From: an uncultured Solirubrobacterales bacterium
GTDB taxonomy: Bacteria; Actinomycetota; Thermoleophilia; Solirubrobacterales; 70-9
Assembly (NCBI GenBank): GCA_963699225.1
Contig: OY969423.1
Coordinates: forward strand, 2,032,740 to 2,096,739
Reading direction: 5' to 3'
Length of the DNA: 64,000 bases
This document shows, in pieces, positions 17,234 through 54,254 of the stretch. The position numbers were made by a program, and so were the translations under genes. Positions within the stretch are counted from its first letter, which is position 1. Every line of letters begins with the position of its first letter. Under the pieces are notes generated by a model. The model worked only from the letters and a program-made list of their open reading frames with translations. It searched no databases and was not told the DNA's origin.

Positions 17234-17872
17234 ATGAAGAAGCTCGCTCCTGCGATTCTCGCTGCCCTGGCCCTGCTCGTCGCGCTCTTGGCCACCGGCC
17301 CCGGCGCGACGGCCGCGCCGACGAGCTGCCCCAGCTTCCGCGTCCTCCACGACGACCGCATTGGTCCCGCCGTTCTGCCAGCCGGCAGCTACACGATCAC
17401 GATCGATTCGACCTCGGGACTTGCCTGCGGAGCGGCGGCGAAACTCTTCACCCGCTTTCTCGAGGACTACGACGGGGTTCTTCCCAGGCCATGGAGAGTG
17501 AGCGCCGAAGGGAGCGGCAAGGCGTCGTTCAAGCCCGGCGACGCTGCCGGCTTCTCGGTCTCGCGCAGCAGCGGAAGTGGCGAAGGGAGCTCTTTGCTCG
17601 GTGCTCTCTGCAATGGCACCTTCACGGTCAACGCCAGCACCCGGGTCGGCCCGCTGTTCTTCCCCAAGGCCGGCTACCTGCTCTACATCCCGCCGCGATC
17701 GGGGATCAGCTGCCGCCGCGCCTCCATCCTCTTCACCCGCTTCCTCGGTGCCGGCGGCGCCTTGCCGCAACCCTGGCGAACGATTGCCCAGACGGCGACC
17801 TTCTACAAGCCGGCCAACCCGACGCGCTCGGCTTTCCGCGTTGAGCCGCTGAGCGGCGCCGGTCCCCGCTAG
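17234..17872 (+). CDS. secreted protein with an internal two-fold repeat
   Basis: MKKLAPAILAALALLVALLATGPGATAAP is a signal peptide. Repeat 1 is SCPSFRVLHDDRIGPAVLPAGSYTITIDS..CGAAAKLFTRFLEDYDGVLPRPWRV. Repeat 2 is LCNGTFTVNASTRVGPLFFPKAGYLLYIPP..SCRRASILFTRFLGAGGALPQPWRT. Confidence 0.65.
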   Translation: MKKLAPAILAALALLVALLATGPGATAAPTSCPSFRVLHDDRIGPAVLPAGSYTITIDSTSGLACGAAAKLFTRFLEDYDGVLPRPWRVSAEGSGKASFKPGDAAGFSVSRSSGSGEGSSLLGALCNGTFTVNASTRVGPLFFPKAGYLLYIPPRSGISCRRASILFTRFLGAGGALPQPWRTIAQTATFYKPANPTRSAFRVEPLSGAGPR

Positions 17873-19182
17873 AGCGCCAGCGAGAGCGGCTCTTCGAGCA
17901 GCGAGCGCACGCGGGCGAGGAATTCGGCGGCGGGGGCGCCGTAGAGGATGCGGTGGTCGCAGGCGAGGTTGACCCGCATCAGGTGCGCGGTGGTGGTCTG
18001 GCCGTCGCGAACGACGGGGCGCTCGCTGATCGCGCCGACGGCGAGGATTGCCGCCTGCGGAGGGTTGATCACGGCGGCGAAGCTGTCGATGCCGAACATC
18101 CCCAGGTTGGAGACGGTGAAGGTCGCCCCCGAGAGCTCCGGCGGCGTGATCTGCCCGTCCCGCACCCGCTGTGCCAACGCCCGCGAATCGCCGGCGATCT
18201 GCCGCAGGTTCTTCTGGTCGGCATCGAAGATCGTCGGCACCACGAGCGCATCCCGAGCCGCCACCGCCACCCCGATGTTCACCCGCGAATAGAGCTCGAA
18301 GCGCCCATCCCGATAAGCCCCATTGGCCCGAGGATGATCCCGCAGCGCCAACGCACAAGCCTTGACCACCATGTCGTTGAACGAAGGAACGACGTCGCCT
18401 TCTTTGGCTCCGGCTTTGATTTGGGACCGAGCCGCAACCAACCGACTCATATCGATCTCTGCCTCCAAATAGAAGTGCGGCGCCGTCGCCTTCGACTCCG
18501 ACATCCGCCTGGCGACCGTCGACTGCAGCTTCGACGGGTCTTCGTAGCTGACGGTCCCCTTGGCTGTTTCGGGAGCAGGAGCTGCTGGTGCGGAAGTGCT
18601 GGCTGGGGACGGAGCGGTCGCAGGTTCAAATCCTGTCTCCCCGGTAGGTGTGCCACCAGCTTTCTCGACATCGGCCTTGACGATCCGACCACCTGGCCCG
18701 GAGCCCTGAAGCTGTGCCAAGTCGAGACCCTTCTCCTTGGCAATCCGTCGAGCCACCGGTGACGCCTTCGGGCGCTCGCCGCCTCCGTTGGAAGCCGGTG
18801 GTGCATTGATCGCAGCTTCCGCGGGTGGCGCCGTAGGGGGTACCGCCCCTGAGGAAGCTTTAGCTACCGGAGGGGGCGGTGGGTCCCCTGCGGCGACAGG
18901 ACCCGCGGCAGTGCGGTCGGTCCCTCCACCGTCCCGATCGGACGCATCTGCATCCCCGACTGTCGCAATGGGGGTTCCGATCGCAACGGTCTCACCCTCC
19001 CGGACCAGAATCTCGCTAAGCGTCCCCGCCACGTCGCTTTCGTAAGCCATATTCGCCTTGTCGGTCTCGATCTCGACGAGCTCATCTCCCACGGCCACCT
19101 CGTCCCCAACCTGCTTCAGCCACTGCAGGATCGTTCCCTCCTCCATCGAGTCGGACAGCCTCGGCATCACGATCTCGGCCAT
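17869..19182 (-). CDS. dihydrolipoamide acyltransferase (E2 of a 2-oxoacid dehydrogenase complex)
   Basis: N-terminal lipoyl domain (VEIETDKANMAYE). E3-binding segment (ASPVARRIAKEKGLDL). Catalytic domain with the DHRILYG motif. Confidence 0.92.
   Translation of the reverse strand: MAEIVMPRLSDSMEEGTILQWLKQVGDEVAVGDELVEIETDKANMAYESDVAGTLSEILVREGETVAIGTPIATVGDADASDRDGGGTDRTAAGPVAAGDPPPPPVAKASSGAVPPTAPPAEAAINAPPASNGGGERPKASPVARRIAKEKGLDLAQLQGSGPGGRIVKADVEKAGGTPTGETGFEPATAPSPASTSAPAAPAPETAKGTVSYEDPSKLQSTVARRMSESKATAPHFYLEAEIDMSRLVAARSQIKAGAKEGDVVPSFNDMVVKACALALRDHPRANGAYRDGRFELYSRVNIGVAVAARDALVVPTIFDADQKNLRQIAGDSRALAQRVRDGQITPPELSGATFTVSNLGMFGIDSFAAVINPPQAAILAVGAISERPVVRDGQTTTAHLMRVNLACDHRILYGAPAAEFLARVRSLLEEPLSLAL
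18819..18908 (-). repeat. family-2 90-nt imperfect palindromic repeat, translated in frame within the E2 linker
   Basis: 81/90 nt identical to 54119-54208 (hand alignment). Terminal inverted repeat CCGCGGGT...ACCCGCGG. Encodes [29 protein letters not shown]. Confidence 0.8.
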
Positions 19183-23899: not shown

Positions 23900-24673
23900 T
23901 CAGGCACCGGGCGCCTCCTCGCCGAGGGGGGCGAAGGCGGCGCGCAGCGCTTCGGCGGCAGCCGCGGGATCGGTGGCGTCGCGGACCGCGCGCACGACAC
24001 AGAGCCGCCGCGCCCCGGCCTCGACCACCTGGGAGACGTTCGAGGCGTCGATGCCGCCGATCGCGAAGAACGGGTGGGGAGCGTTGGCGGCGGCGTGGGA
24101 GATCAGCTCCAGCCCCACCGCGGGTCGGCCCTGCTTCGTCGGCGTCTCCCAGATCGGCCCCACGCTGATGTAGTCCGGTGACGCGCCTGACCGGCGCATA
24201 TCTGCGTCCTCGGTCGCTTGCGTGCGGAGCACGCCGCGCTCCCTGTGTCCTTGATCTGCTTGGTCAGGCGCGTCACCGGAAGCCGCAATTTGCTCTTTTG
24301 AATGCGTGGATAGACCGACTATGGCGTCGGGGCCAAGGAGCGCTCGTGCTTCAGCGACGGTCGTGTCGTCCTGTCCCAAATGGACCCCGTCGGCGTCGCA
24401 GGCGCGCGCCAGGTCGGGGTCGTCGTTGACGATGAAGAGGGCGCTGTTGTTGTCGCAGAGGCGGCGGAAGGTCTGCGCGGCGAGCTCGATCTCGCGCCGT
24501 GGCAAAGACTTCTCGCGCAGCTGCACGATGTCGACACCGCCGCGCAAAGCCGCCGCCAGTAGCGGCTCGGGATCCTCGCCGCGGGGGCGCGCCTCGCAAC
24601 AGAGATAGAGCCGCGCCGTGCGCAGCCGCTCGCGTCGCAGCGGTCCCTCGGCCTCGGGTGGTGCCAGGCTCAT
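23900..24673 (-). CDS. thiE: thiamine-phosphate synthase carrying an in-frame ~29-aa repeat-derived insert
   Basis: ATG 24673. LYLCCEARP...GGVDIVQLREK...GVHLGQDD...IVGLSTHS...PDYISVGPIWETPTKQ...FFAIGGI are ThiE motifs. The insert is encoded by 24174-24280. Confidence 0.85.
   Translation of the reverse strand: MSLAPPEAEGPLRRERLRTARLYLCCEARPRGEDPEPLLAAALRGGVDIVQLREKSLPRREIELAAQTFRRLCDNNSALFIVNDDPDLARACDADGVHLGQDDTTVAEARALLGPDAIVGLSTHSKEQIAASGDAPDQADQGHRERGVLRTQATEDADMRRSGASPDYISVGPIWETPTKQGRPAVGLELISHAAANAPHPFFAIGGIDASNVSQVVEAGARRLCVVRAVRDATDPAAAAEALRAAFAPLGEEAPGA
24174..24280 (-). repeat. family-1 element: 69-nt conserved core (SD+ATG) closed by a perfect 19-bp inverted repeat, inside thiE
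   Basis: Arms at 24174-24192 and 24262-24280 are perfectly complementary. The core 24194-24262 is 62/69 identical to 30942-31010 (hand count). Confidence 0.85.
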
Positions 24674-24704: not shown

Positions 24705-24806
24705 CGGGTAGCATCGGAAGGGTACGGGAGCCGAAGAGGCTGAGAGGGTGGCAACGAGGCCACCGACCGTCTGAACCTGATCCGGGTAATGCCGGCGGAG
24801 GCAATG
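24705..24806 (+). promoter_or_regulatory. TPP (THI-box) riboswitch upstream of thiO
   Basis: ACGGGAGCC...GGCUGAGAGGGUGGC...ACCGUCUGAACCUGAUCCGGGUAAUGCCGGCGGAGG matches the conserved THI-element core (CUGAGA, ACCUGAUC.GG.UAAU.CC.GCG.AGG). The GGAGG at its 3' end is the thiO SD. The boundaries are approximate. Confidence 0.85.
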
Positions 24807-24807
24807 C

Positions 24808-26924
<2,117 letters not shown>

Positions 26925-30331: not shown

Positions 30332-30947
30332 CGACTACGACCCGGCGCGGGTCGTCAGCGTCGATCCTAACCTTGCCCGCCGCGATCATGCGGATCGCCT
30401 CCGAGTAGAGCTGGTGCTCGACGGTGTGGATCGCCAGCTCGAGCGCCTCGCGGTCGCGATCGGGCGGCACGTCGACCTCGCGCTGCAGGATCGTCGGCCC
30501 GGTGTCGACGCCCTCGTCGACGAAGTGGACGGTGACGCCGGTGACGTTGGCGCCCGCCGCCAGCGCCTGTCCGATCGCGTCGAGGCCGGGGAAGGCGGGC
30601 AGCAGGGCGGGGTGGACGTTGACGACACGGTTGCGGAAGCGCCCGACGAAGGCCGGGCTGAGCAGCTGCATGTAACCGGCGAGGACGATCAGATCGGCGC
30701 CCCGCTCCTCGACCCAGTCGGCCATTGCGGCGTCGCGCTCGGCCCGATCGGCGAAGTCCTCGCGGGGGAAGAGCCCGACCGCGATCCGCGCCGCCCGGGC
30801 CCGTTCGATCGCCGGCGCCCCGGGCTTGTCGGAGCCGACCCCGACCACCTCGATCCCCTCGCGCATGTGCAGTCGGTCGAGGATCGCCTGCAGATTCGAT
30901 CCGGTCCCGCTGGCCAGGACCACCAGGCGGAATGTGGCGCTACGCAT
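30324..30947 (-). CDS. purN: phosphoribosylglycinamide formyltransferase
   Basis: ATG 30947 gives MRSATFRLVVLASGTGSNLQAILD...NVHPALLPAFPG...VHFVDEGVDTGP. The SD and ATG lie inside the family-1 repeat core. Confidence 0.9.
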   Translation of the reverse strand: MRSATFRLVVLASGTGSNLQAILDRLHMREGIEVVGVGSDKPGAPAIERARAARIAVGLFPREDFADRAERDAAMADWVEERGADLIVLAGYMQLLSPAFVGRFRNRVVNVHPALLPAFPGLDAIGQALAAGANVTGVTVHFVDEGVDTGPTILQREVDVPPDRDREALELAIHTVEHQLYSEAIRMIAAGKVRIDADDPRRVVVDD

Positions 30948-31026
30948 CTCGGCGTCCTCGGTCGCTCGCGTGCAGAGCACGCCACGCTCCCTGCGTCCTT
31001 GATCTGCTTGACCACATTCCGCCTGG
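30923..31026 (-). repeat. family-1 element copy filling the purF-purN spacer (core 30942-31010, arms 30923-30937 / 31012-31026)
   Basis: The perfect 15-bp arms, CCAGGCGGAATGTGG / CCACATTCCGCCTGG, differ in sequence from the thiE copy. The core is 62/69 identical to the thiE copy. Confidence 0.85.
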
Positions 31027-53621: not shown

Positions 53622-54250
53622 CTACTCGCTCACCACCACACGCGCAGGCCGGATCAACTGCTCATCGAGCCGGTACCCCTTCTGCATCACCTCGACGACC
53701 GTCCCCGACTCGACCCCAACCGAGGCCACGGTCGAGAGCGCTTCGTGCAGCGTTGGATCGAACTTCTCCCCCTCCGGATCCAAGGTCTCGACCCCGTTCC
53801 GCGTCAGCGTCTCCCGCAGCCTGCGGAAGACCAGCAGAACCCCATGAGAGAGCCCATCCTCGGAATCCCCCTCCGGATCAAGACCCGCAGCCTGAATCGC
53901 CCGCTCGAGATCATCGAGAACCACCACAACCTCCCGAATCACCTCAGCCTTCCCGCGCCCCGACGCCGCCTGAACCTCCGCCGTCATCCGCTTGCGAAAG
54001 TTCTCGAAGTCAGCCTTGGTCCGCTTAGCGAGGTCGAGATACTCGTCCCGCTCCCGCTGGGCGTCCGCCAGCAGCGCGTCGAGATCGGTCTCAACGGCGT
54101 CCGCCTGTGGCGCGTCTCCCGCGGGTGGCGGTGTAGGGGGCACCGCCCCTGAGGACGCTTTAGCGACCGGAGGGGGTGGTGGGTTCCCTGCACCGACAGG
54201 ACCCGCGGGCCGATGCTCCTCAGTCCCGGACTCATGTCCCTGATCTGGCC

Positions 54251-54254
<4 letters not shown>
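53622..54254 (-). CDS. grpE: nucleotide exchange factor GrpE carrying a repeat-derived N-terminal segment
   Basis: [20 protein letters not shown]...[11 protein letters not shown] are GrpE motifs. N-terminal residues ~17-46 are encoded by the family-2 repeat. Confidence 0.92.
54119..54208 (-). repeat. family-2 90-nt imperfect palindromic repeat, translated in frame in the GrpE N-terminus
   Basis: 81/90 nt identical to 18819-18908. Encodes [29 protein letters not shown]. Confidence 0.8.

Follow-up and report, generated by a model that had tools for sequence, protein, structure and literature searches.

A dispersed 90-bp palindromic repeat read in frame within housekeeping genes of Solirubrobacterales, with features of a strand-specific hairpin

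Two stretches of a 64,000-nt piece of Solirubrobacterales DNA (the window, taken here at its full length) belong to a dispersed 90-bp palindromic repeat of this order. With slightly better than even confidence, we interpret the repeat as resembling the Rickettsia palindromic elements (RPEs) and as being kept in the form of a strand-specific single-stranded hairpin. We read it as a new family of the RPE kind. Literature searches turned up no account of a repeat of this type from Solirubrobacterales or other Actinomycetota, and Rfam 15 gave no match at the gathering score and, at E ≤ 10, generic hairpin matches of 10–15 bits alone.

The two copies lie at window positions 18811–18908 and 54111–54208, are 88% identical over 98 nt, and lose similarity sharply beyond these limits; an nhmmer scan of the window for more or degenerate copies returned none besides these two. 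Their 90-nt hairpin cores occupy 18819–18908 and 54119–54208 on the plus strand. The first is located in an E2 (dihydrolipoamide acyltransferase) gene (17869–19182, minus strand), in the linker after the lipoyl domain, and the second in grpE (53622–54254, minus strand), where it forms residues ~16–46 of the N-terminal tail. Both copies are in frame in their minus-strand host genes and share orientation and reading frame. For the grpE copy, the window plus strand is the better-folding strand and is antisense to grpE. This gene is part of a dnaK–grpE–dnaJ array running from 56158 down to 52488 on the minus strand, in which the dnaK TGA stop is overlapped by the grpE GTG start (GTGA, 54251–54254). 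An exact look-up of the window GrpE protein returned no record.

Each window copy was predicted by RNA folding to form a single long imperfect hairpin. In the grpE copy, whose core runs CCGCGGGT...ACCCGCGG, the outer stem pairs 54119–54126 with 54201–54208, and its three outermost pairs covary family-wide. The middle stem pairs 54129–54140, which holds GT at 54131–54132 and a nearly invariant GTAG, with 54184–54195, which holds the partner AC at 54192–54193 and T54185 in a G–T pair. The inner stem pairs 54141–54150 with 54172–54181; position 54141 is C in the grpE copy and T in the E2 copy, and 54177 is a T paired with G. The apical stem-loop, GGA(C/A)GC–TTTA–GC(G/T)ACC, spans 54153–54168, with pair 54156/54165 being C–G in the grpE copy and A–T in the E2 copy, both changes synonymous. 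All of these elements are given on the plus strand. The plus-strand RNA folds of the two window copies reached −71.4 and −75.6 kcal/mol (z −5.8 and −6.4) and the minus-strand folds −56.2 and −64.0 kcal/mol; DNA parameters left the strand ranking unchanged, and hairpin energy z scores ranged from −5.8 to −6.9.

The window also contains a second repeat family, at 24174–24281 and 30923–31026. Its 68-nt cores (24195–24262 and 30943–31010) are 91% identical, and each is flanked by a perfect inverted repeat whose sequence differs between the copies, with fold z scores of −4 to −7. A TPP riboswitch (Rfam gathering score) is located at 24714–24820 on the plus strand, upstream of an ORF at 24808–25956.

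The two hairpin cores differ at nine positions, the number given in an earlier sequence-only reading of this DNA; in the grpE copy they are 54131, 54132, 54141, 54156, 54165, 54177, 54185, 54192, and 54193. That reading correctly described the change of core positions 13–14 from CC to GT together with that of their partners, 74–75, from GG to AC, by which pair 13/75 goes from C–G to G–C and pair 14/74 from C–G to T–A, and also the changes C59 to T and C67 to T, by which pairs 27/59 and 21/67 go from G–C to G–T. Both of its preserved double-change pairs are real, but the count was short by one, the third being 38/47 (54156/54165), from A–T to C–G; a further change at 23/63 (54141), from T–G to C–G, was absent from it. 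The nine differences thus sum to three compensated pairs, two changes of G–C to G–T, and one of T–G to C–G, and all 35 plus-strand pairs are intact despite them. When nine random substitutions were simulated on the E2 copy, zero broken pairs occurred in 0.02% of trials, with a mean of 5.4 broken; with nine random transitions only, the corresponding proportion was 3.2%. The comparison with codon positions proposed in the same reading showed five synonymous differences and four that alter the peptide. The CC to GT and GG to AC change is one case of a family-wide behaviour.

Further copies were collected by searching one genome per prokaryotic species for an exact 26-base pattern of the apical region. 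All 90 exact-pattern matches were in MAGs labelled Solirubrobacterales or near, several per genome and at most seven, and the copies come from ~50 Solirubrobacterales MAGs. Copy number by the strict pattern is low, at about 2–8 per genome. Since this exact pattern was used for ascertainment, conservation is inflated in the loop region. Profile searching of 753 kb of sequence, in 8-kb blocks around copies, recovered 110 copies, of which 18 do not match the strict pattern. One copy, in an E2-like ORF on a 1,083-bp contig (L079, DATKKG010000028.1), is filed under a 'Conexivisphaerales archaeon' MAG, which is probably a binning error.

Information in the alignment was near maximal at columns 20–106 and dropped fast beyond 17–110, indicating a unit in which the 90-nt core is bordered on either side by ~12 nt of weak conservation. 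The element has ~75% G + C and terminal inverted repeats (CCGCGGGT...ACCCGCGG) whose outer pairs covary. The stem did not extend into the flanks: true flank pairs gave −9.8 kcal/mol versus −7.7 kcal/mol for mismatched ones, and the complementarity was not contiguous with the stem.

Base pairing is preserved by compensatory change throughout the collected copies. RNAalifold predicted 34 pairs from 85 aligned copies, 12 of them with both sides changed. Under a 36-pair structure drawn from single-sequence folds, standard pairs made up 96.6% of cells, compared with 88.7% after shuffling and 44–54% when partners were slid by 1–3 columns. Cells changed on both sides numbered 204 in the 85 copies versus 58 in shuffles, and none of 500 shuffles matched the observed covariation by any measure; these cells are more numerous than the independent events behind them, the copies being related by descent and conversion. 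Several pairs were found in three or four Watson–Crick states, namely 30/93 (CG 53, GC 21, UA 1, UG 10), 31/92 (CG 46, GC 19, UA 16, UG 3), 45/77 (GC 58, UA 10, AU 9, CG 4, GU 4), and 19/107 (CG 53, GC 18, UA 9). The adjacent pairs 30/93 and 31/92 together occur in at least seven fully complementary combinations, which requires many independent events. Among the 18 off-pattern copies, the T–G at 50/72 resolves to C–G or T–A, and double changes occur at 48/74 and at 45–46/76–77, so the covariation reaches into the region that the search pattern had fixed. Orthologous grpE copies carry compensated changes at four pairs, including a series of T–A, T–G, and C–G at 31/92.

A test independent of the DNA search pattern was provided by 120 GrpE proteins, in which the residues after GPV and after PPT, 21 positions apart, have codons that contain the two sides of pair 30/93. 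The residue pairs were G/P in 108 proteins, A/A in six, D/S in one, and A/T, a wobble, in two, with three exceptions; base pairing visibly drives amino-acid replacements in GrpE. The sequence-only reading had suggested selection on secondary structure and had proposed an alignment-fold analysis of all copies on both strands. That analysis found covariation and favoured the plus strand, and the suggestion of selection is supported. Some of the compensatory changes can also arise from replication template switching (PMC8794818) or from gene conversion, neither of which requires every pair to be selected.

Nearly all copies are inside a long ORF (~95% intragenic). About 5 of 92 are intergenic or at a gene end, approximately the number expected from the coding density of a 2.5–2.9 Mb genome without gene avoidance. 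At least 16 host families were distinguished by clustering, Pfam, and sequence reading. These are the DnaX tau linker and E2 acyltransferases (17 loci each), GrpE (11 loci), the C-terminal tail of ribosomal protein S2 (nine loci), Lhr helicase and a Wzy-type membrane protein (six loci each), the C-terminal tail of ribosomal protein S5 and an unnamed membrane protein (four loci each), FtsZ and RecG (two loci each), and further the PHP domain of PolIII alpha (L023), NuoC (L076), Maf (L087), RibD (L040), PyrK–PyrD (L045), and a radical-SAM enzyme (L054). Tolerant host parts include the N-terminal tail of GrpE, the E2 and DnaX linkers, the C-terminal tails of S2 and S5, and a loop of NuoC, and the encoded peptide is Pro/Ala/Gly-rich. 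The 34-residue peptide, compared with protein representatives, gave 11 matches at E ≤ 0.001, a search with low power for counting host families.

About four-fifths of the copies are antisense to their host gene and one-fifth sense, each class yielding its own peptide, and both orientations were confirmed by host homology in DnaX, Wzy, Lhr, and E2. The codon phase at entry into the host frame is identical for both orientations, so third codon positions of the two frames share columns. Seven loci (L018, L020, L057, L069, L077, L080, and L084) have two copies 200–550 nt apart in opposite orientation; in L018 and L080, both copies are in frame within one gene. In L045 (DASUOH010000005.1), a PyrK-like ORF and PyrD are joined into a single reading frame through the element, which may have fused two neighbouring genes. 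A 283-residue protein (P0093) from a 1.46-kb contig combines a lipoyl-domain E2-like N-terminus with a GrpE C-terminus, the junction being exactly at the repeat; either the repeat has produced an assembly chimera or copies have genuinely recombined.

The element is an insertion, long kept in some genes and polymorphic in others. Of 120 close NuoC orthologues, 110 are empty (167–181 residues) and 10 filled (199–203 residues). At the DNA level, nuoC in L076 and in L092 is exactly 90 nt longer than in the empty L091, and in L093 and L094 the element ends alone remain as internally deleted remnants. In the AlphaFold model of a filled NuoC, two strands flank the insert, which is modelled as an unstructured loop (pLDDT < 50). 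The same NuoC loop holds the element in two orientations, antisense in L076 and sense in L092 and three other orthologues, and a Wzy-like gene likewise has both orientations at one site, which is not expected under random transposition. Filled and empty NuoC sites showed a clean 90-nt gain at a diverged site with no evident target-site duplication, and no transposase or partner insertion sequence was found in the 8-kb blocks around copies. A left-arm pattern designed for solo arms was too unspecific in G + C-rich DNA. From its presence and absence and its multiple sites, the element would appear to be mobile.

In GrpE, the insert is found at one position in 120 of 120 nearest homologues (77–100% identity), and the surrounding residues vary freely. 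Such retention is as compatible with an old element that has been kept and may be useful to the host as with a selfish one. Six of the homologues (P0038, P0046, P0056, P0098, P0113, and P0114) contain a further, partial copy of the insert (AGPVGAGD...), indicating that the N-terminal tail has grown through partial duplication.

The hairpin has a consistent strand polarity. With the near-fixed wobbles set aside, sporadic non-Watson–Crick pairs on the plus strand comprised 31 G–T and four A–C, a ratio of 5:0 among the sense and 26:4 among the antisense copies. The near-fixed wobbles are 33/90 (T–G in 74 of 85 copies), 40/84 (G–T in 85 of 85), and 41/81. The plus strand folded at approximately −68 kcal/mol and the minus strand at approximately −57 kcal/mol; the plus strand was the better one in all 85 copies, that is, in 16 of 16 sense and 69 of 69 antisense copies. 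Because sense and antisense copies show identical polarity, it is a property of the element and independent of host-gene direction. The sequence-only reading had suggested that the structure may act in the strand antisense to the host genes or in single-stranded DNA; the link with the antisense strand did not hold, since about one-fifth of the copies are sense with unchanged polarity and the favoured strand is the element's own. Host mRNA as the common selected form was ruled out by the same polarity in both orientation classes. A deamination bias linked to transcription would be expected to push antisense copies toward the reverse asymmetry.

GC skew of the 8-kb blocks was negative on the element plus strand at 13 of 17 sense and 55 of 75 antisense loci, with a mean of −0.015 in both, and third-position skew instead followed the coding strand. 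The skew, which would place the plus strand on the C-rich strand in both classes, is a weak signal mixed with codon-position effects; it may indicate that element orientation is linked to replication.

Conservation of the element exceeds that of its host at synonymous sites. Third-codon identity among nine grpE orthologues was 0.88 in the element and 0.54 in the grpE core, and ~0.83 in the element once the one-third of it constrained by the search pattern was removed; identical residues had identical codons in 88% of cases in the element versus 59% in the grpE core. Codon constraint also acts: in sense and antisense copies alike, columns at third codon positions are ~2.3-fold more variable, and the two classes agree column by column in their variability (correlation 0.92). 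The proposal that the constraint does not act through the peptide is thus right in that synonymous sites are conserved and replacements follow pairing, but incomplete in that the codons are constrained too. Conversely, the possibility raised in the same reading that substitutions simply track codon constraint is partly true, but leaves the synonymous conservation, the coordinated replacements, and the strand asymmetry unexplained. Peptide-only selection was rejected on the basis of the synonymous conservation, the pairing-led replacements, and the two peptides arising from the two orientations.

Copies in different genes of a genome are closer to one another than are orthologous copies across genomes. 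Core identity was 0.925 for the same genome and different genes, 0.908 for the same gene and different genomes, and 0.895 for neither. Differing columns among the 66 unconstrained ones numbered 6.8 within a genome versus 9.5 between genomes. The apical pair, A–T or C–G and synonymous, agreed in 61 of 79 same-genome comparisons versus 37.5 expected (p ≤ 5e-5). Had the copies descended purely vertically from an old burst, the order of identities should be the opposite, which points to exchange, within-lineage renewal, or a shared, changing trans factor.

Taken together, these observations show that the repeat persists where translation reads through it, in one or other of two open frames, to give an unstructured peptide in a linker, tail, or surface loop of the host protein. 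Three levels of constraint act on it: a stop-free, benign peptide; pairing into one hairpin; and the specific imperfections (G–T wobbles and bulges) that set its polarity. We propose that the relevant form would be the single-stranded plus strand, most simply as DNA exposed in replication or in mobilisation of the element, with the folded plus strand read by a putative trans-acting factor. Two observations make DNA likelier than RNA: transcription signals were missing, a promoter and terminator scan around the grpE copy having returned nothing relevant, and both orientations behave alike. Copies in the same genome may swap sequence through gene conversion or re-insertion. Pairing could be restored after mutation by selection through G–T intermediates, with a probable contribution from template switching within the hairpin, in which both arms change per event. 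Multi-base compensatory hairpin changes in a single event are documented for template switching (PMC8794818), and the adjacent CC to GT and GG to AC change in the window would fit this process.

Of the other explanations, weighed here in descending order, the one that survives best is a domesticated cis-acting hairpin, as DNA or transcript, which has a host function and is selected inside highly expressed essential genes. Examples would be a binding site for a chromosome or replication protein, oriented by replication, or an mRNA site for translation pausing or RNase III. Retention in 120 of 120 GrpE proteins, synonymous sites far more conserved than those of the host gene, G–T wobbles invariant in both orientation classes, negative local GC skew on the plus strand in both classes, and few copies in mainly housekeeping hosts are all consistent with it. 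We nevertheless regard it as unlikely: the element is dispensable in NuoC, where 110 of 120 orthologues are without it and deleted remnants exist; an mRNA role conflicts with a polarity blind to host-gene direction; the GC skew gives a weak signal that is entangled with coding-strand effects; and no promoter-like site is found beside the window copy.

The compensatory changes could also be purely mutational in origin, with in-hairpin template switching and gene conversion spreading a few haplotypes and the structure having no function. One-event multi-base changes of this type are known from hairpins (PMC8794818), the CC to GT and GG to AC change hits two adjacent pairs, evolution is concerted within genomes, and the apical pair is limited to two states, A–T and C–G, with 42 copies each. 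Switching should, however, erase imperfections, and G–T at 33/90 and 40/84, a GG bulge, and an asymmetric internal loop are kept in 74–85 of 85 copies. A strand-symmetric process does not predict the 31:4 ratio of G–T to A–C, wobble intermediates are present in the orthologous series, and several pairs have three to four Watson–Crick states in many combinations. This origin is improbable in our view.

Still more doubtful is a small structured RNA gene on the plus strand, mostly antisense to the host, which would regulate or mark host messages. It would account for the plus-strand polarity, the G–U-compatible changes, and the ~80% of copies antisense to the host, but not for the ~20% of sense copies with identical features; no Rfam family matched even at E ≤ 10, the window copy is without a promoter-like site or terminator, and conservation is weak beyond the 90-nt core. 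A protein module, i.e., a flexible Pro/Ala linker under peptide-level selection, spread through recombination and palindromic by accident, is very improbable despite the concentration of variability at third codon positions, the well-conserved peptide in GrpE, and the location in linkers and loops, because the two orientations give two dissimilar peptides with equal nucleotide conservation, synonymous sites are conserved, amino-acid changes covary according to base pairing, and some copies are intergenic.

The repeat was also compared with known systems. RPEs are palindromic repeats found in frame in unrelated genes of Rickettsia (reviewed in PMC10969869). They and the Solirubrobacterales repeat are alike in being short, in having no transposase gene of their own, in including housekeeping genes among their hosts, and in encoding a conserved peptide tolerated by the protein fold; here as there, a ~100-bp one-hairpin repeat is read through in frame and inserted in a tolerant protein part. 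The hosts differ, AT-rich Rickettsia in the one case and a high-GC order of Actinomycetota in the other, as do the lengths (~100–150 bp for RPEs and a 90-bp core here). Unlike RPEs, the Solirubrobacterales repeat is ~95% intragenic and occurs in both orientations, sometimes at one site, and it shows nucleotide conservation above that of host synonymous sites and concerted evolution within genomes. Homology to RPEs is unlikely given its ~75% G + C, and the likeness rests on described behaviour.

Like MITEs, the repeat is small and dispersed in multiple copies, ends in terminal inverted repeats, can potentially form a hairpin, is polymorphic for presence or absence, and occasionally gives in-frame fusions. 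No target-site duplication was evident at the diverged NuoC site and no cognate IS was found in the 8-kb blocks; the repeat also has no intergenic preference, and its hairpin is full-length. REP/REPIN sequences (RAYT, HUH Y1) and IS200/IS605 elements are comparable in that imperfect hairpins are recognised on one DNA strand, and strand polarity is kept in the Solirubrobacterales repeat. Many REPs are said, in work attributed to Nunvar et al. in 2010, to carry a GTAG tetranucleotide before the inner stem. In the Solirubrobacterales repeat, GTAG occupies alignment columns 32–35, 5′ of the inner stem, and together with the strand-specific hairpin this is a suggestive resemblance. REPs are nevertheless extragenic 20–40-nt units present in hundreds, whereas this repeat is ~95% intragenic with few copies per genome, which places it outside the REP/REPIN group. 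Integron attC sites are alike in acting as one folded single strand of DNA, in conserving their structure and unpaired features, and in the covariation of their arms; they differ in lying at cassette ends beside an integron integrase with poor sequence conservation, whereas the repeat is highly conserved and inside genes. Quasi-palindrome template switching (PMC8794818) is a mutational process that accounts for simultaneous multi-base changes in the arms but leaves the retained wobbles, bulges, and strand asymmetry unexplained.

A more far-reaching version of the single-stranded hairpin reading is that the repeat is more than tolerated selfish DNA, namely a maintained strand-specific signal in essential genes, served by a dedicated trans factor, homogenised among loci, and able to lie in, or flip to, either orientation at a single site, with its polarity following replication and not transcription. 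We put this forward tentatively and consider it unlikely; if true, it would represent a translated chromosome-level cis element, a kind not previously described.

In-frame palindromic repeats, hitherto a Rickettsia curiosity, are now found in free-living high-GC soil Actinomycetota, where their hosts include grpE, ftsZ, dnaX, rpsB, and rpsE. In practical terms, the repeat can cause chimeric metagenome assemblies and spurious 'domain' similarity between unrelated proteins. The case that amino-acid changes in host proteins are dictated by nucleic-acid pairing is unusually clean here, and one strand matters regardless of gene direction. The family is a tractable system for studying how such elements spread and persist, how they are homogenised by gene conversion or a trans factor, and how protein linkers are shaped at the DNA level.
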